Assembly (NCBI GenBank): GCA_964440495.1
Contig: CAYTSD010000004.1
Location: 1 to 57,816 of the forward strand
DNA length: 57,816 bases
From: an uncultured Nitrososphaeria archaeon
GTDB taxonomy: Archaea; Thermoproteota; Nitrososphaeria_A; Caldarchaeales; Wolframiiraptoraceae
Direction of reading: 5' to 3'
Shown here: in pieces, positions 16,906 to 47,106 of the stretch
Position numbering within the stretch: position 1 is the stretch's first letter
Layout of the letters: each line of letters starts with the position of its first letter
Notes under the pieces: model-generated
What the model was told of the DNA's origin: nothing
The model's database searches: none
The model's input: only the letters and a program-made list of their open reading frames with translations
Program-made: the position numbers and the translations under genes

Positions 16906-17739
16906 ATGTGCGTCCTTAGCATGACTGTAATTAGGAAAGTTAGCTTGAGAGAGATCGTCGCTAAGCCTGCTGAAGCTCTTGACGTAGACTTTCTCCCGAA
17001 CAAGAGATTGAAGGGGATCCTGATAAGAGATATTGAGAACATTCCCGAGAACCTAAGGAAAATCACTAGAGCTATAATCGAAGAAGGGGCTAATCTCATA
17101 ATTATGAGACCCTCATCGCCTAGTGCAAGAATAGTGGATCTGCTCTACTATGTGGAGTGCCCGGAAGATACCGAGGAGGCTATAGCATCAAGAATTAGGG
17201 AGCTCAACATAGCTGAAGAGGTTTTAATCTTCGACACGCCTGACGAGAGGCTAGCCTTAAACGCCTTCTTCCCAACCCTAGTTCTAGGAAGGAGGGCGAT
17301 AATCCTTAGAGAACCCGTTTACAGCGGACTCTTCAACGGGCTTCGGGAAATTGTGACAGAAGGTGGCGCAAAAACATTCCTATACATGATTGGACTCCGA
17401 ACCGGGGAAGAGGTAGCTCACTCCCTAATGCCGATAGTGAAGAGTAAAACAATATTAGAATCTCTAGAGACATTAGGTCTAATTGGAAAGGCTTTAGGCT
17501 ACGGCGATCTAGAAAAGATTCAAGCGGTCAAAGATACTATAATTTACAGCGTTCAAGATAATTGGGAGGCCGCGGTTCTGAGAAGAAGGTATCAGACCCC
17601 ACAGTGCTACTGGACAAAAGGTTTACTGGAAGGATTCTTAGGCGAGTTAACAGGCTATAAATGGAAGGCAGAGGAAGAAGAATGTGTCGCTATGGGAAAT
17701 AAGAGATGTAGATTCACTTTAAGAAAAGAAAGCGAATAA
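16906..17739 (+). CDS. V4R (4-vinyl reductase-like) domain protein
   Basis: C-terminal CYWTKGLLEGFLGELTG...EEECVAMGNKRCRF is the V4R signature. The alternative start ATG 16921 fits the TATA at 16882-16890 better. Confidence 0.5.
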   Translation: MCVLSMTVIRKVSLREIVAKPAEALDVDFLPNKRLKGILIRDIENIPENLRKITRAIIEEGANLIIMRPSSPSARIVDLLYYVECPEDTEEAIASRIRELNIAEEVLIFDTPDERLALNAFFPTLVLGRRAIILREPVYSGLFNGLREIVTEGGAKTFLYMIGLRTGEEVAHSLMPIVKSKTILESLETLGLIGKALGYGDLEKIQAVKDTIIYSVQDNWEAAVLRRRYQTPQCYWTKGLLEGFLGELTGYKWKAEEEECVAMGNKRCRFTLRKESE

Positions 17740-17840: not shown

Positions 17841-18473
17841 TTATTCCCCACTCGGTGAGAATTTTTTCTTTATCTTCTTAAATACGCTTCCTATAGTGGT
17901 TGATGGTTCGCTGCTCTCTATCTCAGCCTCCTCCACTTCGCCTCCTCCCCGAATGTATCGCAGGTCAACCGTCTCCATCCCCTGTATTGTGCTCTCGATA
18001 ACTTTTCTTCTATGTATTCCTATTGTAATTCTTAGCGATGAGATTTCTCCTTTTCTATTGATTCTGAAGGCCTTAACCCTAAGGTCTCTAAGCTTCCTGG
18101 TTCTCGCATAAGTTACTGGGTCTACCACCATCGCTATTGCTTTGGGAAACATCATCTGGTATCTCTTCTGGGTTTCAATATCTATTGACGATAGGAAGAC
18201 GTCAAATCCTGGATGAGTGTGATACCATCCAACTATGTAAAGGCCGGGTCTCTCACGCATCAGCCATTCAGCGGTTGCGGCCATAGTTTCTTCTTGTAGA
18301 TAGACAAATGCTGAGGTAGATTTTTGGTCTCCAGTTATCGCGTCCCACACTTCGAGAACATCCTGCTTCTTGAGGTATTTCCCAACCAGTAAGCCCGCAA
18401 CCTCCCGGTCTAAATTTATCAAAGCATGTTTGATTACTTTTCCGAGAGCCAGCGGATAAATCCTAACCCTCAT
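17841..18473 (-). CDS. JAMM/MPN+ metalloprotease, Rpn11-like (putative pro-ubiquitin processing / deubiquitinase)
   Basis: Complete JAMM motif: EVAGLL upstream Glu plus HTHPGFDVFLSSID (HxHx7Sx2D). Divergently transcribed from the Ub-E2-E1-RING operon. Confidence 0.85.
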   Translation of the reverse strand: MRVRIYPLALGKVIKHALINLDREVAGLLVGKYLKKQDVLEVWDAITGDQKSTSAFVYLQEETMAATAEWLMRERPGLYIVGWYHTHPGFDVFLSSIDIETQKRYQMMFPKAIAMVVDPVTYARTRKLRDLRVKAFRINRKGEISSLRITIGIHRRKVIESTIQGMETVDLRYIRGGGEVEEAEIESSEPSTTIGSVFKKIKKKFSPSGE

Positions 18474-18607
18474 AATCCTTAGAAAAAGGTTGAAACACTT
18501 GAATATAATCTTGCTTAAGCGAGGTTTAACGCGGGTTTAAGGCGGCTCCCTAGGTATCTCCTCGATAATTTCTCGAGAATCCTCGAAGTTTTCCAGGCAA
18601 TTAATCC

Positions 18608-18616
18608 TTATATATA
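18608..18616 (+). promoter_or_regulatory. TATA box of the ubiquitin-cascade operon (putative)
   Basis: TTATATATA lies 40 nt upstream of ATG 18656. A GGAGAGGAG/GAGGT purine stretch lies between it and the start codon. Confidence 0.4.
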
Positions 18617-18655
18617 GTTCCCAACCTTCTTGGAGAGGAGCTGGGGTTTAGAGGT

Positions 18656-18916
18656 ATGAAGATTAGGGTAGTTCCAGCTGTAGGTGGTGGAAGCCCTATC
18701 GAGTTAGAGGTTTCTCCCTCGACCACTATAGGTGCGATTAGAGCCAAGGTCTGCGCCATGAAGAGGCTGCCTCCAGACACCACACGCCTAACCTATAGAG
18801 GTAGGGCGCTTAAAGACACTGAGACCCTCCAATCCCTAGGAGTACAGGATGGGGACAAGCTAGTCTTAATCACCAGAACCGTTGGGGGTTCTAGCTATGC
18901 AGGCGGAACTCCCTGA
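18656..18916 (+). CDS. ubiquitin-like protein (eukaryote-type Ub fold) with C-terminal extension after Gly-Gly
   Basis: MKIRV...TRLTYRGRALKDTETLQSLGVQDGDKLVLITRTVGG-SSYAGGTP. This is the ubiquitin-like hydrophobic pattern and an LxLxxRxxGG-type end, followed by 8 extra residues. Confidence 0.85.
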   Translation: MKIRVVPAVGGGSPIELEVSPSTTIGAIRAKVCAMKRLPPDTTRLTYRGRALKDTETLQSLGVQDGDKLVLITRTVGGSSYAGGTP

Positions 18917-19376
18917 ACTCCTCTGGCACAAGAGGCTGGCAATAGAGTATAAGCTAGTCCATGAGCATGAACCCTTATTCGACGTTGTAGCAGGAGATCT
19001 AACCCATTATAAAGGCGTACTTGTCGGTACAGGGATCTACGAGGGTGGATACTTCAAGGTGGAGATACTTCTTCCTCGGAGCTTTCCCTACGTGCCGCCT
19101 GACGTGGTCTGGTGGACGAGGATATGGCATCCCAACTTCACCGACGAGGTTCCAGCACGTATCTGCGAGTCCATATTTAAGGATGATTGGTCTCCAGCCC
19201 TCCACGTGATAACGGTCATCGAGGCTCTCAGAAACCTCCTTAACAACCCGAATCCAGACGACCCCCTAAACACTATAGCGGCCATGGAGATGAAGTTTAG
19301 ACCAGATATATTTGAGGCGAGGGTTAGACAGTATATAGAGCTCTTCGCAAGACCCGACCAAGCCCTCACAAAGTAG
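18897..19376 (+). CDS. ubiquitin-conjugating enzyme E2 (UBC fold)
   Basis: HPNF motif followed by the catalytic Cys context PARICESIFKDDWSPAL. I prefer ATG 18897 over the TTG 18882 in the track. Overlaps the tail of the Ub gene. Confidence 0.8.
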   Translation: MQAELPELLWHKRLAIEYKLVHEHEPLFDVVAGDLTHYKGVLVGTGIYEGGYFKVEILLPRSFPYVPPDVVWWTRIWHPNFTDEVPARICESIFKDDWSPALHVITVIEALRNLLNNPNPDDPLNTIAAMEMKFRPDIFEARVRQYIELFARPDQALTK

Positions 19377-19418
19377 TATAATAGTAGGTCTCTTTGATAA
19401 GAGAGTGGTTAATGGGTA

Positions 19419-20621
19419 ATGAGTGAGGGTGAAGGCTCCCCAATCCCTCGGGAGGATCGCTATGACCGACAGATGAGAATCGAGGGCTGGAGGCAGGATA
19501 AGCTCCTCAACTCAACAGTGATGATAGTTGGGGTTGGGGCAACTGGATGCGAAGTTGCGAAGAACCTGGCCTTAATGGGTGTTGGGAGATTGATACTAGT
19601 TGATAACGATGTTGTGGAAGTCTCGAATCTAAGTAGGCAGATGCTGTTTCTAGACAGGGATTTAGGTAGGCCGAAGGTCGAGGCAGCCGTTGAGAAGCTT
19701 AGAGAGATGAATCCATGGGTAAGGGTTGAAGCATTCTACAGCGATGTTAGAGAGCTTGACCTAACACTCTTCAAGGAATCAGATGTTTTATGCTCATGTC
19801 TAGATAACTGGCCTGTTAGAAGATGGCTTAACTCCGTTGCCGTTGAACTCGATAAACCGCTTATCGACGCGGCCATGGAAGGGTTCTACGCCAACCTCCA
19901 AATAGTCATACCTGGAAAGACCGCCTGCCTCGAATGCCATGGAGAAGACCTAATCCCGAAGGAGGTTCAACTTGCTGAATGCACGCTCAGAAGAAGAAAG
20001 CCTGAAGACTTGGCCTCAGACCTCAAGCAACAGGGGATAGAGATCGAGACCGAAGTAGTTGAGAAGCTATTCGAGCTTGGAATAAAGACTATCTTCGACC
20101 TAAAGTATTCGCAGGCAGATATGTTGGAGAAGCTTGACAATAGCCTCCGAGAGAGGGTTAAGGAGATTCAGGAGATTCTCAAGCCCAAGATGCCTGCGCT
20201 TCAGAGTATAGCCGCAACGATAGCTGGGATAGCCTCAACCGAGGTGATAAAACTCCTCCACGGCGGAAGTGTTGGGAAACCCATGAAAGGCCTCCTAGTA
20301 TACGATGGGGCTGCAGGAAGATTCACGAAGGTGAGGCTTGACAGAAGGGAGGACTGCTTCGTCTGCGGCGACCATGTCAGGGAGAAGGGTGTAGTATTCA
20401 CGGCGAAGCCCGGGGAAACCGTTGCGGAGCTTAAGAAGAGGATTGCTGAGAGCTTCGGCTTCCCAGACCCCGAACTCCTCTACAAGAAGTGGAAGCTCAG
20501 CGACGAGCAAACCCTAAGGCAGGTAGGCGTGAAAACAGGTGAGACTATATACGTTGAGACCAGTAGAAGGTTTACCCCCCTCCCACTACAGATAGAACTC
20601 GTGGAAGAAACAATTAATTAG
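19419..20621 (+). CDS. ubiquitin-activating enzyme E1-like (ThiF/MoeB/UBA adenylation domain plus C-terminal ubiquitin-fold domain)
   Basis: RYDRQMRIEGW...VGVGATGCEVAKNLALMGVG...VDNDVVEVSNLSRQ. Paired CxxC motifs (CLEC, CFVC). The C-terminus VFTAKPGETVAELKKRIAESFG...GETIYVE is beta-grasp-like. Confidence 0.85.
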   Translation: MSEGEGSPIPREDRYDRQMRIEGWRQDKLLNSTVMIVGVGATGCEVAKNLALMGVGRLILVDNDVVEVSNLSRQMLFLDRDLGRPKVEAAVEKLREMNPWVRVEAFYSDVRELDLTLFKESDVLCSCLDNWPVRRWLNSVAVELDKPLIDAAMEGFYANLQIVIPGKTACLECHGEDLIPKEVQLAECTLRRRKPEDLASDLKQQGIEIETEVVEKLFELGIKTIFDLKYSQADMLEKLDNSLRERVKEIQEILKPKMPALQSIAATIAGIASTEVIKLLHGGSVGKPMKGLLVYDGAAGRFTKVRLDRREDCFVCGDHVREKGVVFTAKPGETVAELKKRIAESFGFPDPELLYKKWKLSDEQTLRQVGVKTGETIYVETSRRFTPLPLQIELVEETIN

Positions 20622-20659
20622 GTTCGAGAAGCATAGCCGAGGGAGGGTGACGCAGGAGA

Positions 20660-20923
20660 TTGCCTAAGAGAATAGTTCTCGGCAAGCCGGTCAGCGTGGG
20701 GTTCTGGGATCCCTGGTCGGTTGAGGAGCCTGTTAGAAAGCCGAGGCCGAGGGAGGAGCCCCGTGAAGAGAACTTCTGCGTAATCTGCCTCTCCAAGATA
20801 GAGGAGGGGGCTCCGACGATCCAGTGCCCGCACTGTGGAGCAATCGGGCATAGAAGCTGCTTTGAGGACTGGGTTAGGCTTAAGGGGACCTGCCCTCTCT
20901 GTAAGAGACCTATAACGCTTTAG
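20660..20923 (+). CDS. small RING-type zinc finger protein (putative E3)
   Basis: CVIC-x12-CPHCGAIGHRSC-x3-W-x7-CPLC gives eight Cys/His ligands in cross-brace-compatible spacing. TTG start preceded by GGAG. Confidence 0.8.
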   Translation: MPKRIVLGKPVSVGFWDPWSVEEPVRKPRPREEPREENFCVICLSKIEEGAPTIQCPHCGAIGHRSCFEDWVRLKGTCPLCKRPITL

Positions 20924-20974: not shown

Positions 20975-21373
20975 GTGAAGCGTCTGGAGGAGAGAAGAGA
21001 GGAGGAGAAGGAAGAGGAGGAAGAAGAAGGAGTCGTTGAGATAGAGTTAAGCTATCTAGATACCCCTGGGGGTAAGAAGGTTGCAACCCTAGAGTCGGCT
21101 AAGAGTTTAGCCGACGCCATAGTGGTTTTAGATGACGCTGTATCAGAGTTGGAGGAGAAGGTGGGAAGGTTGGAGAGAGGTGAAGGGCTCGTGAAGGTGG
21201 TTGAAGAGTTCTCAGCAAGGATTACAGCAATCGAGAAGACGTTAAGTGACTTGGAGAGGAATCTTCAGACAGAGTTGGGAGACCTATCTGACAAGCTCTC
21301 AGCGCTGATAGACGCCTTCCACGAGCTGGCTGAAAGGGTTCAGAGAATAGAGGATGAGATTTCTAGGGGCTGA
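20975..21373 (+). CDS. acidic coiled-coil protein, unknown function
   Basis: Poly-Glu N-terminus, then heptad-like Leu/Glu repeats. GTG start. No family recognised. Confidence 0.4.
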   Translation: MKRLEERREEEKEEEEEEGVVEIELSYLDTPGGKKVATLESAKSLADAIVVLDDAVSELEEKVGRLERGEGLVKVVEEFSARITAIEKTLSDLERNLQTELGDLSDKLSALIDAFHELAERVQRIEDEISRG

Positions 21374-22199
21374 GGAAAGCCCTCCTCATATCGGCCAGAG
21401 TCTTCTCAAGGCTCGCACGCTTCTCCTCAAGCTCCTCTATCTCGGACTCCAGCCTCCTCTTCCTCTCACTTAGAGAGGTTAACTCGCCCTTAAGCTGAGT
21501 TAGCTTACGTTCAAGCTTCGCAGCCTCCTCTTCCTTCTCCCTCATCCTCGCAAGCGAGTCCTTCAGCTCTGCTTCACGTCTCACCAGTCTTTCCAGCCGT
21601 ATCTCCCTCAGCTTGAAGTCCCTGAGCATCTCCTTCATCATGTCTGAGAGCCTGTTCCGAGCCTCTTCAAGCCCTGCCAGATAGCGTTGCTGAAGCTCAG
21701 CTATCCTGTTCTCCAGCTCGGTCTTCCTCTCCTCAAGCTCTCTGACCTCAGCCTCTCTAAGGGTAAGCTTCCTCTCCTTGGCGTCAAGCTCCTCCTTCCA
21801 CTTCCTTATCTCCTCCTTCATAACCGCTAGCTCGGTCTTCTCCTTTAGAACCCGGTTAATCTCCTGTCTAAGGGATTCACGCTCCTTGCTCAGCGACTCA
21901 ACGATGTCCTTTATCCCCTCCTGAACCGAGAGAAGCATGTTCTCATAGTAGCGTACTATCGTCAACTCTTCAGCGACTTTCTCAGCCTTCCCAATGAAGG
22001 AGTTTAGCTTTGACTCCCAGCGCTGAGGTTGAGAGGCGACCGTGGATAAGAGTTCTAGAGCCCTGTCAAGCTCGTTGTTTATCTTAGAGAGCCTGTTATC
22101 CAAGCCCTCTGTCAGATTCTTCTCTATCTCGGTTAGTCTCCCGCTAAGCCTCTCCTCAAGCTCTAGAAGCTTATCTTTCTTGCTTGTGAAGGGACTCAT
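21363..22199 (-). CDS. long coiled-coil protein, unknown function
   Basis: 278 aa, almost entirely heptad-rich E/K/R/L sequence. TATA-like TTTTTATAG on the minus strand about 25-32 nt upstream of ATG 22199. Confidence 0.45.
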   Translation of the reverse strand: MSPFTSKKDKLLELEERLSGRLTEIEKNLTEGLDNRLSKINNELDRALELLSTVASQPQRWESKLNSFIGKAEKVAEELTIVRYYENMLLSVQEGIKDIVESLSKERESLRQEINRVLKEKTELAVMKEEIRKWKEELDAKERKLTLREAEVRELEERKTELENRIAELQQRYLAGLEEARNRLSDMMKEMLRDFKLREIRLERLVRREAELKDSLARMREKEEEAAKLERKLTQLKGELTSLSERKRRLESEIEELEEKRASLEKTLADMRRAFLSP

Positions 22200-22335
22200 C
22201 TCTGCCTAGGCTAATTGATACGGCTATAAAAAGGTGTTTCGGCATATCTCGAAAATCAACTCTTATAAAAGAGCCTGGGCTAAAGGGTTTAGAAGAGGTG
22301 CGGATGCAGGAGTGATAGTTGGTCAAGAAGAGGTT

Positions 22336-23043
22336 ATGGCCAGACTTTATAAGATAGGCGCAGGAGCAGCAGCGGTAGGCGCAATCCATATCCTAACACT
22401 GCTTCTAAGCTGGTATATCGAGAGCAATGGGAAAGTCGTTGCAGCCTTGGTTGGATATGTTTTCCCGGAGTCGCTTATATTCTCGGTGGCAGGCGGACTG
22501 ATGGCTGGAATAGGCCTCCTCATAGCATATGTGGTTAAACGGGTAATCGTCACCAAACTCGTGATAGGTGCTCTAGCAGTTATTGGAGGTGTTCTCGCAC
22601 TCTTCTCCCCCCTCTACATATACTTCTACCACATTCTTGAGCTAGGGATACGCGGGTACCCCGATATAGGTTTCTTCGCAGCAATCTTCACAGGAATAGT
22701 CCAGATAGGTGTGGGCGCTCTCGCTCTCCTCACGCCGACGAAGAGGGAGATAATACCCACAGCAGCTCCAGAGATTACGCCTACACCAGCCTTCGAGCCA
22801 GCGCCTACACCCCCTCCACCGACAACGCCTAGAACGCGGAGACCAAGGGGGCCTGCCACCGCAAGAATCGTACCCGCAACCGACATAGAAGAGGCCACCT
22901 GCAGCATATGTTATGAGCCTGTTAAGCCTGAGGATGCTGTGAAGTGTAGCGCCTGTGGGGCTATCTTCCATAGAGGATGCATCGATACATGGGTAAGCCT
23001 GAATGGGACATGCCCTGTCTGTAAGGCCGTGATAGTGGGCTAA
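22336..23043 (+). CDS. polytopic membrane protein with C-terminal RING-type zinc finger (paralog of the small RING protein)
   Basis: Several hydrophobic segments, then a Pro/Thr-rich linker (TPTPAFEPAPTPPPPTTP), then CSIC-x11-CSACGAIFHRGC-x3-W-x7-CPVC. Start set at ATG 22336 (GAGGT upstream). The track gives GTG 22234. Confidence 0.7.
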   Translation: MARLYKIGAGAAAVGAIHILTLLLSWYIESNGKVVAALVGYVFPESLIFSVAGGLMAGIGLLIAYVVKRVIVTKLVIGALAVIGGVLALFSPLYIYFYHILELGIRGYPDIGFFAAIFTGIVQIGVGALALLTPTKREIIPTAAPEITPTPAFEPAPTPPPPTTPRTRRPRGPATARIVPATDIEEATCSICYEPVKPEDAVKCSACGAIFHRGCIDTWVSLNGTCPVCKAVIVG

Positions 23044-27140: not shown

Positions 27141-27731
27141 ATGAACTTTGAGGGGGAGTTAAAGAAGATATCAGAGATAACGAAGAGCTATCTTATGTTA
27201 ACAGATGAAGATATTCAGAGAATTAGAAAAATCAAGAATGTTTTACTGGAAAATTCTGAGGAGATTGTTTCAGGAACTGTTGGGTCTCTTTTATCATGTG
27301 AGCTTGCCTTGGAGTTTGTTAAGAAGGCTAACCTAACCGAGGAGCAGGCTAAGAAGCTGTTTAAGCACTGGTTTCTCACATTCCTTGAAGGCAGCTACGA
27401 CCTAAGACATGCTAAGGAAGTCTTTAGGATAGGGTTGGCTCACGCAAGGTACGGCGTACATAGGAGGCTTATGTGCATGTGTATGGGTGCATGGATTAGA
27501 GAGATTCTGAAAGTTATTGAGGCTGAATCGGGGAGAATAGATGAGCTTGTTCCAACAATTGCGTCCGTCTCGAAGCTCATCTTCTGGAATCTAGTGATAA
27601 TGCTTCATGGATACCATGTTGCGAGGGTTGAGAGTCTTAAGCGGGCGGCGGGAATCTCACCTCAACTTATCGATAGGCTCTTTAGGGTTAAGGCGGATGA
27701 GGTCTATAAGAGTCTGCTGAAGAGGATGTAG
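27141..27731 (+). CDS. protoglobin / globin-coupled-sensor-type globin domain protein (single domain)
   Basis: HWFLTFLEGSYDLRHAKEVFRIGLAHARYGV parallels the protoglobin pattern (W-x-L...SYD...IGL-x-H, proximal His). 196 aa. Confidence 0.55.
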   Translation: MNFEGELKKISEITKSYLMLTDEDIQRIRKIKNVLLENSEEIVSGTVGSLLSCELALEFVKKANLTEEQAKKLFKHWFLTFLEGSYDLRHAKEVFRIGLAHARYGVHRRLMCMCMGAWIREILKVIEAESGRIDELVPTIASVSKLIFWNLVIMLHGYHVARVESLKRAAGISPQLIDRLFRVKADEVYKSLLKRM

Positions 27732-39266: not shown

Positions 39267-40385
39267 ATGAGAGAATTGGAGAGGCTTGCGGCTGAACGTG
39301 CGCGGGACGCTGTTCAGCTCGATAAGAAGGGTCTAAAGAAGGAGGCTGCGCGAAGATACCGTGAGGTTATCAGGCTTCTCTCGAGAATAATTGAGCTGAC
39401 CGAGGACCCGATTATGAGGGGGGTCTACGAGGAGAAGCTGAAGCAGTATAAGAATAGGCTTGAAGTCCTCGGGGAGGCTGAAGCAGAAGGAGAGCCATCG
39501 GTGAAGACAAAGACCGTGAAGACATCCGATGAACCCTACATCCTCAAGGAGCCGCTCCAAGTCACATGGGATGATATAATAGGATTAGAGGATGCGAAGA
39601 AGGCTGTTAAGGAGAGTATAATCTACCCCACGAAGAGGCCAGACCTTTTCCCGCTAGGCTGGCCACGTGGAATCCTGCTTTTCGGCCCACCCGGATGTGG
39701 GAAGACTATGCTTGCAGCCGCCGTTGCTAGGGAGATTGACGCAGTCTTCATGCAGGTTGACGCCTCGATAATAATGTCTAAGTGGCTTGGAGAGTCTGAA
39801 AGGAATGTTGCAAACATCTTCAAAGTTGCGAGAAAATATGAGTCTGAGGGTAAGCCTGTGATAATATTCATCGATGAAGCCGATTCCCTTACAGCCTATC
39901 GGTGGAATGAGGTTGGAGGAGAGGCGAGGGCGAGAAACCAATTGATAAAGGAGATGGATGGACTCCTAGACAAGGGTAAGAAGAGCTACATCTACGTTCT
40001 CGCAGCCACGAATAAGCCCTGGCTTCTCGACGAACCATTCATAAGAAGATTTCAGAGAAGAATCTTCATAGGTTTACCTGACTATGAGACGAGGCTTAAG
40101 ATGCTTGAATACTATACGAGTAGACTTGAACTAGATGAGGATGTCAAGTTAAGTGAGATTGCGAGGATGACCGACGGATACTCCGGAGCAGATATACATG
40201 ACATTTGCATGGAGGTTCAGATGAAGGTTGTAAGCGAGTTCTTCGAGAAGGGAAGCGGCGAGGATAATAAGCCCAGGAAGATAAGCATGTCAGACTTCAT
40301 CGATGTAATCAAGAGAAGGAAGCCTAGCGTCGATCTAGATACTATGAGGAAGATGCTTGAATGGGCTTCAAGATTCGGAGCCTAA
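39267..40385 (+). CDS. cdvC: Vps4-like AAA+ ATPase CdvC (N-terminal MIT domain)
   Basis: MIT-like three-helix N-terminus, Walker A GPPGCGKT, Walker B IIFIDEADS, and ATNKPWLLDEPFIRRF second region of homology. Confidence 0.85.
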   Translation: MRELERLAAERARDAVQLDKKGLKKEAARRYREVIRLLSRIIELTEDPIMRGVYEEKLKQYKNRLEVLGEAEAEGEPSVKTKTVKTSDEPYILKEPLQVTWDDIIGLEDAKKAVKESIIYPTKRPDLFPLGWPRGILLFGPPGCGKTMLAAAVAREIDAVFMQVDASIIMSKWLGESERNVANIFKVARKYESEGKPVIIFIDEADSLTAYRWNEVGGEARARNQLIKEMDGLLDKGKKSYIYVLAATNKPWLLDEPFIRRFQRRIFIGLPDYETRLKMLEYYTSRLELDEDVKLSEIARMTDGYSGADIHDICMEVQMKVVSEFFEKGSGEDNKPRKISMSDFIDVIKRRKPSVDLDTMRKMLEWASRFGA

Positions 40386-41171
40386 AGCCTCCCTTCCAAC
40401 AAGCTCTATCACGCCCTTCCTCTCCAACTCCTCTAAAATCTCCTTGACCTCTTCAACATCTATCCCAAGCTCCTTCGAGCATTCATAGACGTCTATCTCA
40501 TCCTTCTTTGAGACGTAGGAGTAAACCTTTCTCTCTTTCTCGGTCAGCTGAGGCACATCTGGGAAGGAGCTCTTAACCTTCTCCGCAGCCTTCTCCTGCG
40601 CCTCCCTAAGAATCTTGACAGCTTCCTCGTCAAGCTCACTCATAGTTATCGGCGACAGCTCACCTTGAGTTGAGGATGATGTAAACTCTTCGATGCATTC
40701 AGCGAGCTCGTGGAGGCTTTGAGCTGCTTCTGGGACCACTCCTGCAACCTCGTCTTCAACCTCTGTGAGGAGTGAGAGCAAGGGGACGACTAAACCTATG
40801 ACTTCACTTATCTCAAGGATTGTCTCAAGCCTAAGCTTAACCTGCTCCAAGACAAGCTGCGTCTTCATGACCATGCTTGCAAGCCTTCTAACCTCGGCTA
40901 TCTCCTCAGCATAGATTGCGGCTCTCCCCTCATCCTTATTCACTAAGGCGTCGATAACCCTCTCGAAGTACTCCCTGCTTCGGGAGACCATCTCGGCATA
41001 CTTGTATCTAAGTTTCTCGATTTGAGCGTTTAAAGCAGAGAGAGAAGCCTCCAACCTACGTTTAAGCTCTTCCCTCGCCTCCTCATCCATGAATGGGTCT
41101 CCACCCAGCTCTCCGTCTCCTATCATTAACCTAGCCGAGGCTGAGAGCCGAAGCTTTATACCCTTTACCAA
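40368..41171 (-). CDS. cdvB: ESCRT-III-like protein CdvB with C-terminal winged-helix domain
   Basis: Snf7-like helical hairpin core followed by YSYVSKKDEIDVYECSKELGIDVEEVKEILEELERKGVIEL. The track start is TTG 41171. ATG 41126 and ATG 41090 are alternatives. Confidence 0.7.
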   Translation of the reverse strand: MVKGIKLRLSASARLMIGDGELGGDPFMDEEAREELKRRLEASLSALNAQIEKLRYKYAEMVSRSREYFERVIDALVNKDEGRAAIYAEEIAEVRRLASMVMKTQLVLEQVKLRLETILEISEVIGLVVPLLSLLTEVEDEVAGVVPEAAQSLHELAECIEEFTSSSTQGELSPITMSELDEEAVKILREAQEKAAEKVKSSFPDVPQLTEKERKVYSYVSKKDEIDVYECSKELGIDVEEVKEILEELERKGVIELVGREALGSES

Positions 41172-41339: not shown

Positions 41340-43160
41340 ATGTGCGGTATAACTGGATGCGCGGCCAAGGGGATTCAAGTCTCACCTCTCCTCCACAAGT
41401 CTCTTAAGAGATTAGAGTATAGAGGTTATGACTCAGCAGGCATAGCAACAGTCTATAATGGGAAGATCTACGTCAAGAAAGATGTAGGCAAGATAGATGA
41501 GATACATAAAAGACTAAACCTAGACGACCTTCCTGGATCTATTGGGATAGCTCATACAAGGTGGGCGACGCATGGAGCGCCGTCCAAGGTTAATGCTCAT
41601 CCTCACATAGATTGTAAGGGGGAGCTGGCGATAGTTCATAATGGGGTCATAGAGAACTTTCTTGAACTGAAGCAGGAGCTCCTCGATAGGAAGCATGAAT
41701 TTGCCTCGAGAACAGATACTGAGGTAATCGCTCACCTGATAGAGGAGTATCTAAAGATGGGTAGAGGTTTCTTCGACGCGGTTAGGGAGGCTGTTAGAAG
41801 ACTTAAGGGAAGCTATGCAATAGCAGTAATCTACTCTAAAGAGCCTGACAAGATAGTTGTGGCTAGGCAGGAGTCTCCGTTAGTTATAGGGCTTGGAGAT
41901 GGAAAGAATTTTGCTGCAAGCGATGTAGCGGCGTTCATAGAGTATACGAATAAGGCTATCTTTCTTCAGAATGGTGAGATGGCTGAGGTCACGGCTGACA
42001 AAGTTAAACTGGTTAGAATAGATACTGGTGTGGAGTTTGAGAGGAAGCCGACGACTCTTGAATGGAGTATCGAGATGGCTGAGAAAGGCGGCTACCCGCA
42101 CTTCATGTTAAAGGAGATTCATGAGCAGCCTCACAGTCTCAGAGAGGCCTTGAAAGCCCAGCAACAATATATCGACCTCCTCGCAGAGTTCCTCGATAGA
42201 AGTAGGGACACCTTGCTCCTCGCAGCTGGAACATCCTACAACGCCTGCGTCGCCGCATCATATCTCTTCTCAAAGATTGCTCGTCTAACAACTTATCCAG
42301 TGATAGCCTCAGAATATATTGAGAACTATGGAGCTTCATCGGGTGTCGACACGGTTATTCTCGCTGTAAGCCAGTCTGGTGAGACGGCGGATGTCTTAAA
42401 CGCCTTGGAGTATGCGAGGATGAGGGCTGCTACAATACTTGGATTGACGAATGTTGTAGGCTCGACCCTTACCAGGGTTGCGAGAGCCTATGTTCTCCAG
42501 AACTCGGGCCCCGAGATAGGGGTTGCAGCAAGCAAGACCTTTACGGCTCAGCTAATGGTTCTCTCAATGCTTGGTCTTAGGCTTGCTAGGAAGAGGGGGA
42601 AGCTGGCCCAGTATGAGATAGATGAGCTTAAGGAGGAGCTGCGTAGAGTTCCAGAACTCGTTGAGAAAGCTTTGAAAATCTCTGAGGAGCCTATAAAGAA
42701 GCTTGCCAAAGAGCTTGCAAACTCTTCCAGCATCTTCTTCCTTGGAAGAGGGATAAACTATGCAACAGCCCTCGAGGCCAGGCTCAAAATCATGGAGCTA
42801 TCCTACATACCATGTATAGCTTATCCAGCGGGTGAAAGCAAGCATGGCCCGATAAGCGTTATCGAGAAGGATTATCCAGTATTCTTCATCGCTCCAAACG
42901 ACTCCACCAGGAAGCATGTTATTGGAAACATTATGGAGATGAAGGCTAGGGGTGCCAAGATATACTGTGTTGGAACCGAGGGTGATGAGGAACTCAAGAA
43001 GCAGTGTGATTGGTTCCTTGGTCTGCCGAAGGTTCACGAGATTCTAAGCCCAATAGTCTATGTGATACCCTTCCAGCTTCTCGCATACTACATGGCTGTT
43101 GAAAAGGGATATAATCCCGACATGCCGCGGAATTTGGCGAAGTCTGTAACCGTTCTTTAG
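41340..43160 (+). CDS. glmS: glutamine--fructose-6-phosphate aminotransferase
   Basis: N-terminal MCGI nucleophile, two SIS domains, and C-terminal ...RNLAKSVTV-type end. Confidence 0.9.
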   Translation: MCGITGCAAKGIQVSPLLHKSLKRLEYRGYDSAGIATVYNGKIYVKKDVGKIDEIHKRLNLDDLPGSIGIAHTRWATHGAPSKVNAHPHIDCKGELAIVHNGVIENFLELKQELLDRKHEFASRTDTEVIAHLIEEYLKMGRGFFDAVREAVRRLKGSYAIAVIYSKEPDKIVVARQESPLVIGLGDGKNFAASDVAAFIEYTNKAIFLQNGEMAEVTADKVKLVRIDTGVEFERKPTTLEWSIEMAEKGGYPHFMLKEIHEQPHSLREALKAQQQYIDLLAEFLDRSRDTLLLAAGTSYNACVAASYLFSKIARLTTYPVIASEYIENYGASSGVDTVILAVSQSGETADVLNALEYARMRAATILGLTNVVGSTLTRVARAYVLQNSGPEIGVAASKTFTAQLMVLSMLGLRLARKRGKLAQYEIDELKEELRRVPELVEKALKISEEPIKKLAKELANSSSIFFLGRGINYATALEARLKIMELSYIPCIAYPAGESKHGPISVIEKDYPVFFIAPNDSTRKHVIGNIMEMKARGAKIYCVGTEGDEELKKQCDWFLGLPKVHEILSPIVYVIPFQLLAYYMAVEKGYNPDMPRNLAKSVTVL

Positions 43161-44605
43161 ACCCTTTCCCTAAGCTTGAAGAAGAGCCTCGTCTCACCCA
43201 TAGTCTTCAGAGGCATCTCCCTAACCTTCACAACGATAGGCAGGTCGTTCACCATCCTACCTATCATTAGGCAGTATCTTGGGGGGAGCGCCTTCGCAAT
43301 TCTCTTGGCGGTCTCAGAGTCTACTCTAGAAGCCTTCGAGATGTATTCTAGGTCTGATTCATTCGTGAAGTTGAAGAGGAAGATGTTGTCAGCCTGTCTA
43401 TAAACGGTCTCGGGTATCATGTCAGGCTGATTTGTGACGAAGATTGGGAATAGGCCTGTATGCCTCATCCTCGTAACAAGGTCATCCCAGTAGGTTTCCC
43501 TTAGATAGAGGTGAGCCTCCTCAGCGACGAGAAAAATCGGGTCTACTCTACCTTCTCTTAGAAGACTTGACAGCTTGCTCAGAAGATACTCCACTATTAT
43601 TCTTCTGCCGCTTGGAATGGTCTTCGAGAGGTTGACAACGATTATTCCTCCATCCTCCATATTGTTTAGGGTTTCCTCCAAGTTTGTTGCCTCTTCTTCG
43701 CTGAAGAATTGAGTTGAGTTGAGGCTCAGTAATCTGCTCATCAACGCTTCTCTAACCGATTCATGCATCTGAGCTCTTCCAGCGGCCTCTATTAACCCCC
43801 GTAGGCTCACCCTTCCCTTAACTCTCTTCACGGTTCCCCATAGTCGGATGAATTCTCTGAGGCTTGCGGCTGGAGTGTTTAGGACATGTTGAAGTATGTC
43901 GAGTATTGTTCCAAGCCCTGCGTCTTCTATGGATGCCTTGAAGTTTTCACCTGGGTTTAGAACTAGATGCTTGTCGGCGACCCCGCTTCTACCTCCGTCC
44001 AATCTTGTTGAGAGCCCAACATATTCTCCGTTAATGTCCAGTACAACTATCTTTGCACCGTATTCTGCTAGGGAGGTTACGAGAAGCTTTGCTAGATGAG
44101 ATTTACCGGTCTCCTTCTTCCCAGTGATTATTGTCAGTCTACCGTCGAAGGCCTCGGCGTTCACGGTCAGTATCCCGCCCATACACTCACCTATCACTAT
44201 AGGTCTTCTCCCACCGATGCTTGAGAGCTCAGCTATCAGCTCTGGGGATGCATGCTCTATCCTGGAGCCGAGTTTTGAGGGAAGCCAGAGGAGGTCGCTG
44301 CGCAATCCATCTCCATCGACTACTCCCCGGAGCTTCGCAACAACTATTCGGGCATCTCTAAGACCGGCTACAAGGGAGCCTACACCATAGGGGTCTATCA
44401 ACCTTGTTGAAAGCTCCTCGGAGCCAAGCTCTCTTAGAGCATCCTCAAGCCCCCCTGGAAGCTCGGCGTAGTCTACGTCTATGACTTGGAGGAGGAGACG
44501 TCTCCTACCATCCACTGCTTGGAGGTAGTCCCCACGCTGGAGGGGCTTCTCATCTGGGGCGGCGAGGAGCTCAACCAGGTCACCGCTCTTGGATAGAAGC
44601 TTCAT
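43157..44605 (-). CDS. HerA/FtsK-superfamily (DUF87-type) ATPase, divergent HerA-like
   Basis: N-terminal barrel-like segment (GDYLQAVDGRRRLLLQVIDV), Walker A ITGKKETGKSHLAK, Walker B IFLVAEEAHLY, and VTNQPDMIPETVYRQADNIFLFNF (HerA-type sensor region). ATGA overlap with the upstream NurA-like gene. Confidence 0.7.
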   Translation of the reverse strand: MKLLSKSGDLVELLAAPDEKPLQRGDYLQAVDGRRRLLLQVIDVDYAELPGGLEDALRELGSEELSTRLIDPYGVGSLVAGLRDARIVVAKLRGVVDGDGLRSDLLWLPSKLGSRIEHASPELIAELSSIGGRRPIVIGECMGGILTVNAEAFDGRLTIITGKKETGKSHLAKLLVTSLAEYGAKIVVLDINGEYVGLSTRLDGGRSGVADKHLVLNPGENFKASIEDAGLGTILDILQHVLNTPAASLREFIRLWGTVKRVKGRVSLRGLIEAAGRAQMHESVREALMSRLLSLNSTQFFSEEEATNLEETLNNMEDGGIIVVNLSKTIPSGRRIIVEYLLSKLSSLLREGRVDPIFLVAEEAHLYLRETYWDDLVTRMRHTGLFPIFVTNQPDMIPETVYRQADNIFLFNFTNESDLEYISKASRVDSETAKRIAKALPPRYCLMIGRMVNDLPIVVKVREMPLKTMGETRLFFKLRERV

Positions 44606-45645
44606 CTAAACACCTCCCCGTCCACCGGGTTGAAGAGGAGGTCGCGAATCGAGGTTGGGTGGATTATCTCGACGCTCCTCCTGCGAAGCATGGCTTGGAT
44701 TGCCAGTACGTCGAGCTTGCTGAAGGTGCAGTAGTCGTGGGCTAGGATGAGGGTCTCAGGGTAGCCATACACTAGGGCATCGCTTCGGAGGAGGCTTCCG
44801 AAGACCCTTTCCGCGGAGGCGGTTATGCTGGCGTCAACCCTGAACCCGCTGCATCCGGGGCAGAGCCTGGCCAAGAATATGTCTCCTAGGACTCGAACCC
44901 TCATCTCAGCGCTCCTGACAGCTTGGGTGACCTCGACTAGGTAGGGTGGCTCAGCCTCGGCGCCCAAGGTTGTTAGAAGCTCACCCCAAACCCTTAGAAC
45001 ACTAGTCTTAGAGAAGGCGAGAATATCGTTTCCCCGAGGCCTGGCCTTCTCGAGAATCCTGCCTACTAGGTAGAGGGGGTTGTCTAGGGGGCCTGCGGAG
45101 AGGGAGCCGTCGAAGAGGAGTATGCTGTCGGTATAGTGTTCGGCGGCGTACTCCTGCATCCGTTTCTCGATTAGGCCTGCCATCACCCTCTGGATGGAGT
45201 TGTAGAGCTGGTAGTTTCCCCAGGCTTCGAGGGGGGCGGCGCCGAGAACCGAGGCGAGAAGCTCTCCCATGTTCTCGTAGCTCACATAGAAGACCAGTGG
45301 GCCGAGGACCTCGACAGCTGTTTTGGAGCGGTCTCGGGTTACGATGGCCCCCCTAACGGCTATGACTACGCCTCTCGACCCTGCCGCAACCCTTATCGAG
45401 GAGGTGTCTATGGCCACGACAGGGCGTCTAGGCGCCTCAAGCTCAGGTTGAATTATCTCAACGGCTCCTTCTCCCCGGCCCTCCAGAAAGGCTATACAGC
45501 ACTCATCTTGAACAATATTCTCAACACCACCAGCGTAAAGCCTGAGGCCGTCGACCTTCTCTAGGCTTCGGAGACTGCTCTCAAGGAAAGCTTTAAAATA
45601 GCTTTGTGAGGCTTCTATTTGGGGTTGTTGGCTTTGGAGGGTCAT
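44602..45645 (-). CDS. NurA-like nuclease domain protein
   Basis: NurA-type motif series: VVAIDTSS (motif I Asp), LLFDGSLS, AFSKTSVL, and YGYPETLILAHDY. Confidence 0.6.
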   Translation of the reverse strand: MTLQSQQPQIEASQSYFKAFLESSLRSLEKVDGLRLYAGGVENIVQDECCIAFLEGRGEGAVEIIQPELEAPRRPVVAIDTSSIRVAAGSRGVVIAVRGAIVTRDRSKTAVEVLGPLVFYVSYENMGELLASVLGAAPLEAWGNYQLYNSIQRVMAGLIEKRMQEYAAEHYTDSILLFDGSLSAGPLDNPLYLVGRILEKARPRGNDILAFSKTSVLRVWGELLTTLGAEAEPPYLVEVTQAVRSAEMRVRVLGDIFLARLCPGCSGFRVDASITASAERVFGSLLRSDALVYGYPETLILAHDYCTFSKLDVLAIQAMLRRRSVEIIHPTSIRDLLFNPVDGEVFR

Positions 45646-45681
45646 GCCGCAGTTTCCCCTTGTTTATTGGGGTTTGCTGTG

Positions 45682-45690
45682 CTTATAAAT
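45682..45690 (+). promoter_or_regulatory. TATA box for the 45717 gene (leaderless-type spacing)
   Basis: CTTATAAAT ends 27 nt before ATG 45717. Lies in the 71-bp divergent spacer shared with the NurA-like gene. Confidence 0.4.
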
Positions 45691-45716
45691 GTTGCTCAAC
45701 TTGAGCATGATGAAAA

Positions 45717-46136
45717 ATGAACGAGCAGGAAAAAATCAAGGTTGAGGTCACGATAGGGCCTGCCACGGTCAGGGTTGAGGCTCCACCCGATAAGTTGGAG
45801 GAGGCTTTGAGGCAGGTTGTCTCGGCTCTTAGGGCCGCCCTCCCCCAGTTGATGGTTGAGGAAGAGCGGAGGGAGAGGGTTAGGAGGAGACCTCAGCCCA
45901 CATGCGCATCTCTTCTCCGCCAACTCATAGAGGAGGGGTGGTTTGATAGGCCTAGAAGCCTCTCGGAGACCACGCAAGAGCTTGCTAGAAGAGGCTACAA
46001 CTATGACTCAACCGCGGTCTCCCACACCCTCCTAGACCTGGTTAGGGAGAGGGTTCTCGTTAGGGAAGGCTCGCCCAGACGCTACGTGTATTACAGGCCT
46101 GAGGGCAGGGTGGCTGAGCGGGAGGAGCGGGTCTAA
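45717..46136 (+). CDS. small winged-helix protein, paralog family member 1 (unknown function)
   Basis: N-terminal KIKVEVTIGPATVRVEAPPDKLEEALRQVVSAL motif shared with the next three genes. C-terminal wHTH-like RSLSETTQELARRGYNYDSTAVSHTLLDLVRERVLVREGSPRRYVYY. Confidence 0.5.
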   Translation: MNEQEKIKVEVTIGPATVRVEAPPDKLEEALRQVVSALRAALPQLMVEEERRERVRRRPQPTCASLLRQLIEEGWFDRPRSLSETTQELARRGYNYDSTAVSHTLLDLVRERVLVREGSPRRYVYYRPEGRVAEREERV

Positions 46137-46633
46137 GGCTTCTCACCAGTCTGGCCATACTTCTCGAGCACACGCTTTATCCCAAGCTGGGTTATGGTGT
46201 AGTCGCCTCTATCCAGCCTCCTAAGCATCCCACGTTGAACAAGCTCGGACAGCCTGCCTGACACGGTCTTCTCGCTCTTGGAGAGGCTTCGGCTAAGCTC
46301 CGAGAGGTTCACCGTCGGGCTCTCCCTCCTACCGAGGCTATGCTCGAGATGGCTTCGGAGGGCTAGGAGGAGGACTGCGTCCGTGACTGGGAGGTCGTCG
46401 AGGTTCTGGAGGAAGAAGAGGCCCTCGCTCTCCTCGTAGGCTATGAGGCCGCCCAAGCTCTCAAGAACCTCTTGGAGGCCGACGCTGTAGGCTATCTTCT
46501 TGGCAAGCGAGTAGGCTGGGATAACCTTCTCGAGGAAGGCGACTACCTGTCGATAGACCTCCTCGGGCGCTCCAGAGAACTCCGCCTCAAGCTCCCCATA
46601 CCTTATGCTGACCCTAAGCTCATCTTCCTTCAT
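46133..46633 (-). CDS. small winged-helix protein, paralog family member 2 (unknown function)
   Basis: ELRVSIRYGELEAEFSGAPEEVYRQVVAFLEKV N-terminal motif. C-terminal wHTH VNLSELSRSLSKSEKTVSGRLSELVQRGMLRRLDRGDYTIT. Confidence 0.55.
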   Translation of the reverse strand: MKEDELRVSIRYGELEAEFSGAPEEVYRQVVAFLEKVIPAYSLAKKIAYSVGLQEVLESLGGLIAYEESEGLFFLQNLDDLPVTDAVLLLALRSHLEHSLGRRESPTVNLSELSRSLSKSEKTVSGRLSELVQRGMLRRLDRGDYTITQLGIKRVLEKYGQTGEKP

Positions 46634-47106
46634 AGGCTCTCACCGAAGAGCTCTCGGAGCGAGGCTGGTGTAAAGGTGTAGAGCCCCTCCCCCTGTTTCA
46701 CCACTAGGCCTGCTCTCCTAAGCTCGCTCAGCCTTGCCCGGACAACCCTCTCATTAAGCCCCGAGTAGGCTGCAACCTCCTTGGGTGTAAGGGTGTCTTT
46801 CTCGAGGAGGCCTAGAGCCTTCCCCACATAGACGGCGGCCAGGCAGAGGAGTATCTTACGCTTAGCGTCGAGCTCCTTGAGTACCGTCACTCTACCCTCC
46901 CTTATCTCAACCATGCCTGCAAGCCTCTCGGCAAGCTTCTGGACATCGATTGCGCCGACAAGCTTCTTCACCGCCTCTAGGGCTGGATAGAGTTGGGAGA
47001 GATACCTGTTGACGCTTGCCCAGACCTCTTGGTATCCTCCCTCAAACTCTGCCTCCGTCCCTCCATGCCTTATAGTGATCTTGAGAGGTTCTCCGCTCAT
47101 CTTCAC
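46630..47106 (-). CDS. small winged-helix protein, paralog family member 3 (unknown function)
   Basis: PLKITIRHGGTEAEFEGGYQEVWASVNRYLSQL N-terminal motif. C-terminal wHTH LTPKEVAAYSGLNERVVRARLSELRRAGLVVKQGEGLYTFT. ATGA overlaps on both sides. Confidence 0.55.
   Translation of the reverse strand: MKMSGEPLKITIRHGGTEAEFEGGYQEVWASVNRYLSQLYPALEAVKKLVGAIDVQKLAERLAGMVEIREGRVTVLKELDAKRKILLCLAAVYVGKALGLLEKDTLTPKEVAAYSGLNERVVRARLSELRRAGLVVKQGEGLYTFTPASLRELFGESL

Follow-up and report, generated by a model that had tools for sequence, protein, structure and literature searches.

A probable orthologue of the Caldiarchaeum-type ubiquitylation operon in an uncultured Nitrososphaeria archaeon, and a possible extension toward a membrane-anchored RING protein

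Does an archaeal chromosome encode a full ubiquitylation cascade of the eukaryotic type, and how far do the genes of such a cascade extend? The question is raised by five adjacent genes at positions 17841 to 20923 of contig CAYTSD010000004.1 (GenBank assembly GCA_964440495.1), a stretch of 57,816 nucleotides (nt) from an uncultured Nitrososphaeria archaeon, which was analysed at its full length and is called the window below. A sequence-only reading had described these genes as encoding a ubiquitin (Ub), a conjugating enzyme (E2), an activating enzyme (E1), a small RING finger protein (E3 ligase) and a divergently transcribed JAMM metalloprotease. We observed that all five open reading frames (ORFs) are indeed present in this interval, that each of the encoded proteins scores above the Pfam gathering threshold for its family, and that their catalytic motifs are intact. 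Since the E-values range from 1e-11 to 1e-61 and the synteny is kept in more than 60 independent contigs, chance resemblance is excluded for the five-gene cluster. The six points of gene content and gene order by which we recognize an aigarchaeal ubiquitylation operon are all found here. To judge from these comparisons, the locus is very probably orthologous to the eukaryote-like ubiquitylation system of the Caldiarchaeum type and native to a chromosome of the Caldarchaeales (Aigarchaeota), and its five-gene core is a new copy, from a related but distinct lineage of hot-environment archaea, of a system that has already been published and characterised in structure and biochemistry.

The five cascade proteins and their predicted roles

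The Ub gene (18656-18916, plus strand) encodes 86 residues. The possibility that this beta-grasp protein is a ThiS/MoaD carrier was examined by profile search, in which it matched the Pfam ubiquitin family (PF00240, 55.4 bits) and gave no ThiS match at E<0.01. Among solved structures it matched Protein Data Bank (PDB) entries 2mqj, 6fj7 and 5zew, each named 'Ubiquitin-like protein', at about 1e-40 (7e-41 for 2mqj, up to 2e-40); the entry names and PMC6043591 indicate that these, and the protease entry 6fju discussed below, are proteins of Caldiarchaeum subterraneum. Human ubiquitin chains in the PDB were also matched, with E-values of about 1e-9 to 1e-10 per Ub unit, and human Ub and the archaeal protein are 40% identical over 67 aligned residues. 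The earlier description of a ubiquitin-like protein was thus borne out, but its 'RTVGG end' was not the end of the product. Mature Ub would comprise residues 1-78 (18656-18889), closing with RTVGG and the pair Gly77-Gly78, after which the gene continues through an 8-residue tail, SSYAGGTP, coded by 18890-18913; the presence of this tail after the GG makes the protein a pro-form. Residues T46 and K31 are kept as in C. subterraneum Ub (PMC5654768, PMC11354881). In the five closest related loci of our comparison set (L001-L005), the Ub orthologues are 94% identical to that of the window, as against 65-71% for E1 and 38-56% for RING1 from the same loci, and Ub is under strong constraint.

The E2 gene (18882-19376, plus strand) can be read as 164 residues from TTG 18882 or as 159 residues from ATG 18897. 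The ATG is most likely the true start, because the conserved N-terminus of the orthologues begins ELPE(P/L)LW. The protein matches Pfam UQ_con with 94.9 bits, and its best PDB matches are the eukaryotic Ubc13 and E2-K (E 1e-22). It carries HPN at residues 83-85, a sole cysteine, Cys95, at the predicted catalytic position, FPY in loop 4, WSPA in loop 7 and a C-terminal Lys164, so that the features for which it was first singled out, HPN plus a catalytic cysteine, are both in place.

The E1-like gene (19419-20621, plus strand) encodes 400 residues with the composite structure that the sequence-only reading had attributed to it, namely a ThiF-type core, paired CxxC motifs and a C-terminal beta-grasp domain. 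The Pfam ThiF match (206.7 bits) extends over residues 15-313 and covers 236 profile positions; this disparity implies an insertion of about 60 residues, which corresponds to the catalytic-Cys region. The C-terminal domain (residues 323-382) belongs to the ubiquitin family (PF00240, 30.7 bits), in the position of the ubiquitin-fold or ubiquitin-like (UFD/UBL) domain, and aligns with the Ub of the window at 25% identity (E 2e-5). Motifs were located at 38-43 (GxGxxG) and at 170-173 and 313-316 (the two-CxxC zinc site), and Cys188 lines up with the catalytic-Cys region of human UBA3. In comparisons with the PDB, human UBA3 and yeast and human Uba1 were matched at E 4e-37 (131 bits), ahead of Escherichia coli ThiF at 4.5e-29 and MoeB at 3.6e-27 (105 and 98 bits).

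The last gene of the plus-strand string, RING1 (20660-20923), encodes a small RING-H2 finger protein of the srfp-type E3 class, 87 residues in length. As had been stated from the sequence, it is a genuine RING finger: it matches Pfam zf-RING_2 with 43.6 bits and Prok-RING_1 with 29.6 bits, and has all eight zinc ligands, from C40 to C81. Ile42 and Trp71, at the positions that contact E2, and Lys82/Arg83 after the last cysteine are conserved in the orthologues whose contigs include the gene. A segment near the N-terminus, RIVLGxxVxVGxW, is conserved as well. In one related locus (L073, 1188-1912) a LAGLIDADG-type homing-endonuclease-like ORF, with a weak Pfam match, lies on the minus strand and overlaps the RING1-homologue region downstream of E1.

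The JAMM protease gene (17841-18473, minus strand, 210 residues) is divergent from the other four and begins 182 bp from the Ub start. It matches Pfam JAB with 70.7 bits, and the motif, which had been called complete, is so: E24 together with H85-x-H87-x7-S95-x2-D98. A motif scan of the window showed no second MPN/JAMM motif besides that of this protein. Its match to PDB 6fju ('26S proteasome regulatory subunit N11-like protein', the C. subterraneum CsRpn11) has an E-value of 2e-64, and from the printed alignment the identity between the two proteins, 55% overall, rises to 61% in the catalytic core (first 149 residues). Outside Caldiarchaeum its best relatives are Rpn11/PSMD14 and CSN5, with yeast Rpn11 at E about 5e-19. 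The term Rpn11-like, as we use it, expresses affinity of sequence and not membership of a proteasome lid. The protein is predicted to be both the processing enzyme of pro-ubiquitin and a deubiquitinase.

The position of the JAMM gene varies among relatives. Upstream of Ub in a metagenome-assembled genome (MAG) assigned to Ca. Caldiarchaeum subterraneum (DQVM01; locus L013, 1-5118), archaeal flagellin and a T2SSE/FlaI-type ATPase replace the divergent protease gene, and since such archaellum or type IV pilus-like genes can occupy this place, juxtaposition of JAMM to the operon is not universal even within the genus. In the window, a gene for a V4R-domain protein (16906-17739, 277 residues) stands between the L21e gene and JAMM; it looks like a lineage-specific insertion beside the cluster, because L21e directly adjoins JAMM in L001-L005.

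The spacer between the JAMM and Ub genes (18474-18655) was read directly and scanned for a simple TATA-like pattern; a scan for sigma-70 promoters and intrinsic terminators, which is not meaningful for archaeal DNA, gave counts close to those expected from shuffled sequence. A TATA-like A/T box, TTATATATA, lies at 18608-18616, faces the Ub operon and precedes the Ub ATG by about 40 bp, and a TTATAT box on the minus strand (18508-18503) precedes the JAMM ATG by about 30 bp. By their position, these A/T-rich boxes are the putative promoters of the Ub operon and of the JAMM gene. Downstream of the first box the Ub and E2 genes overlap, 42 nt separate E2 from E1 and 38 nt separate E1 from RING1, and because of this tight packing the four genes are probably expressed as one transcript.

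If the proteins act as their counterparts do, the cascade would proceed as follows. Ub would be made as the 86-residue precursor, and JAMM would cut it after Gly78, exposing the RTVGG C-terminus. E1 would then use ATP to adenylate Gly78 at its Rossmann/GxGxxG site, to which the two-CxxC zinc site would lend stability, and would bind Ub in thioester linkage to Cys188, within the inserted Cys region; E2 may be recruited by the C-terminal ubiquitin-like domain of E1, a step we place here by inference. Ub would be passed to Cys95 of E2, beside the HPN loop, and RING1, binding E2 through Ile42 and Trp71 and aided by the basic residue after its last cysteine, would promote discharge onto lysines of the substrate; conjugation could also be reversed by JAMM. 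For the window's own proteins these activities are predicted from orthology and from the intact motifs. JAMM cleavage, charging of E1 and E2, RING-dependent conjugation and deubiquitylation were each demonstrated in vitro with the C. subterraneum orthologues (PMC5654768, PMC6043591).

Several points weigh against this reading, or limit how far the characterised system can be carried over to the window. The window's proteins resemble the characterised C. subterraneum set only moderately, JAMM being about 55% identical to CsRpn11 and E1 about 51-56% identical to the Caldarchaeum MAG proteins used as proxies, and the fold assignments of E2 and E1 rest on profiles. In the reference system itself, according to Hennell James 2017 (PMC5654768), the physiological substrates could not so far be determined, and the same applies to a link with the proteasome. 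In some relatives unrelated genes separate E2 from E1, so expression as a single operon is not obligatory. In addition, Ub in L001-L005 stops exactly at RTVGG and has no propeptide, so that processing is not universally required in the clade.

The separation of E2 and E1 was seen in two Terraquivivens loci. In L006 (3972-5982) a membrane transporter of about 480 residues, encoded on the minus strand and split into two ORFs, stands between the two genes, and in L008 (5127-5982) the intervening minus-strand gene encodes a protein of 223 residues; in both loci the E1-RING pair must consequently have its own promoter. As for the propeptide, its presence seems tied to overlap of the Ub and E2 genes. 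Loci L001-L005 have a spacer of about 140 nt between the end of Ub and E2, and the Terraquivivens and Caldarchaeum loci (L006-L015) have Ub tails of 8-18 residues, unrelated in sequence, paired with Ub and E2 genes that abut or overlap. The E2 ATG of the window, at 18897, itself falls within the Ub tail codons. The sequence of the tail is, by this comparison, apparently unconstrained, and processing by JAMM would be needed only where a tail exists.

Host lineage and chromosomal setting

The distribution of E1 places the cluster. At E<=1e-20 we found 400 homologues, of which the named ones come nearly all from MAGs designated Caldarchaeales, Aigarchaeota, 'Nitrososphaerota' or Wolframiiraptor, and dozens of contigs from the Caldarchaeales (Aigarchaeota) carry the cluster as well. 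The remark that such operons are very rare in prokaryotes is dated in view of these numbers. Among GTDB species representatives, the closest E1 loci (71% identity) belong to two 'Thaumarchaeota archaeon' AUK MAGs and an uncultured Nitrososphaeria MAG, followed by a Wolframiiraptor sp. MAG (68%) and by Terraquivivens species (56-58%). E1 identity is 51% to a Caldarchaeum sp. MAG and 56% to a 'Ca. C. subterraneum' MAG, and with the Caldarchaeum MAGs as proxies E2 is 69% and Ub 79-90% identical. The cluster is thus of help in placing the organism, as had been expected of it, and the placement is within the Caldarchaeales, near Wolframiiraptor-like MAGs. An Rfam scan at gathering thresholds and a tRNA scan detected no rRNA or tRNA gene in the whole window, so this taxonomic placement rests on protein similarity.

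The genes that flank the cluster are archaeal housekeeping genes, among them those for Cgi121, Sua5, L10e, KsgA, DUF655, Rpo4, L21e, a class II aminoacyl-tRNA synthetase (aaRS) and tRNA-splicing endonuclease; in such surroundings the ubiquitin cluster is chromosomal and native. Its GC content is unremarkable. Eukaryotic contamination or transfer was considered and rejected: the genes form an operon and overlap, archaeal housekeeping genes lie on either side, and the synteny extends across the order.

Three other groups of genes in the window deserve mention. A convergent, slightly overlapping pair at 39267-41171, which lies downstream of the ubiquitin cluster at a distance of about 16 kb, encodes CdvC/Vps4 (MIT, AAA and Vps4_C domains; PDB 4lcb, E 2.7e-118) and the ESCRT-III protein CdvB (C-terminal winged helix; PDB 9s97 'Cell division protein B2', E 6e-28). 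An ESCRT link of the ubiquitin cluster to this pair was rejected, as the two lie some 16 kb apart with no sign of linkage. At 43157-47106 there is a HerA-like (DUF87) and NurA-like pair, followed after about 0.5 kb by genes for two winged-helix proteins of 166 and 158 residues, paralogous-looking and without family assignment. Among the housekeeping genes downstream of the cluster, a protoglobin-family gene at 27141-27731 encodes 196 residues (Pfam Protoglobin, 60 bits).

A conserved extension to position 23043 and the alternative readings

The boundaries first given to the cluster, 17841-20923, enclose a real unit, but the conserved block of genes reaches to 23043. Comparison of the window with related loci by tblastn gave the order JAMM on the minus strand, then Ub, E2, E1, RING1 and cc132 on the plus strand, cc278 on the minus strand, and TM-RING2 and the class II aaRS on the plus strand. 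The Ub-E2-E1-RING order is the same in L001-L011 and L014, and the extended order is kept, where the contig is long enough, in Wolframiiraptor-like, Terraquivivens and Caldarchaeum loci. Homologue searches with TM-RING2 and cc278, which were capped at 8000 candidates, gave close relatives only, and the search was widened by tblastn on the loci, by a metagenome scan and by an exhaustive search of representative proteins.

Directly downstream of RING1, cc132 (20975-21373, plus strand) encodes a small acidic coiled-coil protein of 132 residues with a net charge of -18, whose matches in Pfam were just generic coiled-coil ones, all sub-threshold. Its position is conserved in L001-L011, L014 and L073, and of the 51 metagenome loci with room for it 42 have it; it is from this synteny that its membership, like that of the next gene, is proposed. 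This gene, cc278 (21363-22199, minus strand), is convergent with cc132, the 3' ends overlapping by 11 nt, and encodes a coiled-coil rod of 278 residues that the AlphaFold2 (AF2) model renders as a single continuous helix over residues 5-275 (mean pLDDT, the per-residue confidence score, 89). Matches of cc278 to DotF, MCP, MukB and keratin in the PDB profile search were rejected as generic coiled-coil resemblance, and so were sub-threshold matches of the SMC/JetC/LmuB arm type in Pfam and PADLOC. A metagenome scan anchored on cc278 yielded 55 loci, with identity down to 30%, and in every one of them the gene lies beside Ub genes. Where the contig had room, RING1 was a neighbour in 47/47 loci, E1 in 36/36 and TM-RING2 in 39/39.

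TM-RING2 (22234-23043, plus strand) encodes a predicted membrane-anchored RING-H2 E3. Its probable start is GTG 22312, in agreement with the database gene call, and gives a product of 243 residues that matches Pfam zf-RING_2 with 45.5 bits. In the AF2 model (mean pLDDT 84), helices occupy residues 5-31, 52-75, 78-108 and 119-140, with a beta-hairpin in the first outer loop; these are followed by a disordered Pro-rich linker (147-180) and the C-terminal RING. The RING is predicted to be cytoplasmic, because there are four helices and basic residues lie on the N-terminal, TM2-TM3 and post-TM4 sides (TM, transmembrane helix). Its eight ligands and the Ile and Trp residues that would contact E2 are conserved in the orthologues whose contigs include the gene, and the architecture of four TM helices, linker and RING is conserved in the same orthologous loci. 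Used as a profile against 1.84e9 (1.84 billion) representative proteins, the TM domain retrieved 13 clusters only, of which 11 include a RING; the other two, which have no RING in the listed sequence, look truncated or frameshifted. In Foldseek searches of the PDB the model gave weak matches to claudin/TARP-like tetraspan proteins (E 3e-3 to 4e-2, TM-score about 0.5), and membership of that family was rejected, as the resemblance is one of topology only.

Is the extension part of the ubiquitin system? One reading is that the cascade belongs to a nine-gene module, in which Ub, E1 and E2 serve both the soluble RING1 and the membrane-anchored TM-RING2, with cc132 and cc278 as dedicated adaptors, scaffolds or native substrates. 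This would extend the orthologue reading and does not exclude it. The order through TM-RING2 recurs in three groups of loci, cc278 was placed by the scan only beside Ub genes, RING2 keeps its zinc ligands and the Ile and Trp on a RING predicted to face the cytoplasm, and the TM domain is limited to its own family. The genes E1, RING1, cc132, cc278 and TM-RING2 also stay together in a rearranged sub-lineage (L021, L023, L025, L029, L039 and L051), where no Ub, E2 or JAMM gene lies within about 4 kb of E1 in the fetched locus. However, all of this is synteny within one archaeal order, in which gene order may be inherited rather than selected, and the housekeeping aaRS is almost equally syntenic. 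Furthermore, cc278 and TM-RING2 form transcription units of their own, searches of Pfam, PDB and PADLOC gave no informative homologue for the coiled-coil proteins, and in one locus (L071) TM-RING2 and the aaRS are present but the 7 kb upstream contain no gene of the Ub system. On balance we regard the module, and with it the assignment of the extension to 23043 to the ubiquitin system, as a tentative proposal whose chances fall a little short of even. Under it, as a further step of inference, TM-RING2 could use the same E2 to mark membrane-proximal targets, and cc132 and cc278 could act as adaptors or substrates.

Two of the related loci may be described further. In L025 (3180-8886) an HypD gene and an acylphosphatase-domain gene lie beside E1, a luciferase-like monooxygenase gene is inserted before TM-RING2, and the class II aaRS gene next to the block is another one, in the opposite orientation. 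In L071 (7001-9346, GCA_025058225.1) a divergent TM-RING2, with 29% identity, adjoins the class II aaRS, and genes for Lrp, an HMG-CoA-synthase-like protein and thiolase lie upstream of it; the cascade may be encoded at another place in that genome, or TM-RING2 may be able to exist without it.

For the membrane anchor and the coiled-coil neighbours, an incomplete search of the literature gave no description beyond 'a second E3 protein', to which the C. subterraneum operon is said to be adjacent (Fuchs 2018, PMC6043591); several RING E3s have been described in aigarchaeal genomes (Grau-Bove 2015). Rad50, a heterologous coiled-coil protein, served as a surrogate substrate in the reconstitution of the C. 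subterraneum cascade (Hennell James 2017, PMC5654768). The five-gene core adds one more intact, moderately diverged copy (E1 51-56% against the Caldarchaeum MAG proxies), useful for comparative and ancestral-state work but not surprising. The extension is the more useful outcome, since it offers a coiled-coil pair and a membrane-tethered E3 as testable candidates for the targets and the site of the cascade. Were the assignment true, it would provide a prokaryotic precedent for membrane-localised ubiquitylation, an archaeal ubiquitin cascade would have its first candidates for native adaptors or substrates, and membrane-anchored RING E3s would predate eukaryotes.

A second alternative is that the locus encodes a bacterial-style anti-phage conjugation system, of the Bil, CBASS Cap2/Cap3 or 6A-MBL type with E1, E2 and JAB, on a mobile or defence island. 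PADLOC models do touch two of the proteins: JAB models match JAMM (best 2.6e-10) and CBASS 'E1-E2' models match the adenylation half of E1 (best 1.7e-22, 78 bits), to which may be added a weak match of the NCBIfam 6A-MBL cap2_3 model (1.7e-11). These PADLOC matches are generic, at the level of the superfamily and, for E1, confined to the adenylation domain, and they fall far below the ThiF (207 bits) and Pfam JAB scores; Ub, E2 and both RINGs have no PADLOC match. Moreover, E1 and E2 are unfused, a RING E3 is present which those defence systems lack, and the locus lies between ribosomal and aaRS genes in a position that is conserved across the order, with GC content that is not atypical. The anti-phage reading is therefore rejected as highly improbable.

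The least probable alternative, an ordinary sulfur-carrier or SAMP system in which a ThiS/MoaD-like carrier, a ThiF/MoeB/UbaA E1 and a JAMM desampylase merely adjoin an unrelated 'E2' and 'RING', can draw on matches of the E1 adenylation domain to the NCBIfam ThiF, MoeB and UbaA models (1e-34 to 4e-41) and of JAMM to the Haloferax desampylase model (E 2e-4), but these lie far under the curated cut-offs (for example, 140 against 275 bits for E1, and a weak 21 against 130 bits for JAMM), the beta-grasp protein is a Pfam ubiquitin that matches human ubiquitin rather than ThiS, a UQ_con E2 and a RING-H2 protein share the same tight gene string, the E1 has a Cys-region insertion and C-terminal UBL and is matched better by UBA3 and Uba1 than by ThiF or MoeB, and CsRpn11 does not cleave SAMP precursors (PMC6043591), so that the profile results effectively refute it.

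Comparison with known systems

The probable orthologue of the Caldiarchaeum-type system described here can be compared with several groups of conjugation systems. With the SAMP/UbaA/JAMM1 and ThiS/MoaD-ThiF/MoeB systems it has in common the ancestral beta-grasp fold, E1 adenylation chemistry and a JAMM-family protease; those systems work without E2 or E3 and with carriers of the ThiS/MoaD family, whereas the window encodes a PF00240 ubiquitin, an E2, RING proteins and an E1 with UBL domain and Cys insertion. The Bil and CBASS Cap2/Cap3 systems (PMC10557695) likewise bring E1, E2 and JAB together in a prokaryotic operon, but they have E1-E2 fusions or Bil-type proteins, no RING, and a role in defence. 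The Asgard ubiquitin clusters (PMC9192718, PMC11188069), which are regarded as relatives of the eukaryotic system, contain the same types of component, that is, Ub, E1, E2, RING and JAB, also clustered. They are reported to be tied to ESCRT-I/II-like and UEV proteins, and no such genes flank the cluster in the window, a comparison that was made by description.

Among solved structures, the E1 and E2 described here are closest to members of the eukaryotic Ub/NEDD8 cascade (Uba1 or UBA3-NAE1, Ubc13, E2-K, RING-H2 E3s and Rpn11), and the predicted chemistry is the same, from adenylate to E1 thioester to E2 thioester to RING-assisted aminolysis. The differences are several. The E1 of the window is a single chain of 400 residues; it lacks the large catalytic-Cys half-domains (first and second) and has no regulatory subunit as a protein of its own. 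Rpn11 of the eukaryotic lid works as an obligate MPN heterodimer with Rpn8 in the PCI/lid complex, whereas JAMM here is free-standing, with no Rpn8-type partner or lid genes in the window; CsRpn11 is active alone (PMC6043591). In Ub, Ile44 of the eukaryotic hydrophobic patch is replaced by Thr46 and Lys48 by Arg, and the genes are arranged as an operon with only two E3s nearby. TM-RING2 for its part has the same plan as the eukaryotic transmembrane RING-H2 E3s of the RNF/ATL type (PMC4021871, PMC3161093), in which a membrane anchor is joined through a flexible linker to a C-terminal RING-H2 on the cytosolic side, but there is no detectable homology outside the RING, and the likeness is one of analogy and not of membership.

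The closest counterpart is the operon of C. subterraneum, which the sequence-only reading had correctly named as the best known case of the class. In that operon (CSUB_C1473-C1477), rpn11l on the reverse strand is followed by ubl, e2l, e1l and srfp, partly overlapping (Nunoura 2011, PMC3082918); the cascade was reconstituted by Hennell James 2017 (PMC5654768), CsRpn11 was characterised by Fuchs 2018 (PMC6043591), and within the literature we searched this is the only prokaryotic E1/E2/RING-E3 ubiquitin cascade to have been reconstituted in vitro. The window differs in lineage and in the protein identities given above; in addition, the Ub tail is of 9 residues in C. subterraneum and of 8 here, with unrelated sequence, and here a V4R-domain gene lies between L21e and JAMM. 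The same five genes occur in the same order and orientation, with a divergent JAMM gene and partly overlapping genes, and a second E3 is adjacent in both. Each Ub precursor continues for a short tail beyond the GG, each E1 includes a UBL domain and an insertion in the Cys region, and the RING proteins share the ligand pattern C-x2-C...C-x2-C-x4-H-x2-C...C-x2-C. Also shared are T46 and K31 of Ub, the HPN, PY and WSPA elements of E2, and the Ile, the Trp and the basic linchpin of the RING; of these, Ub T46, the E2 PY loop and the three RING positions are functionally important in the C. subterraneum papers, and their retention here supports the orthologue reading.

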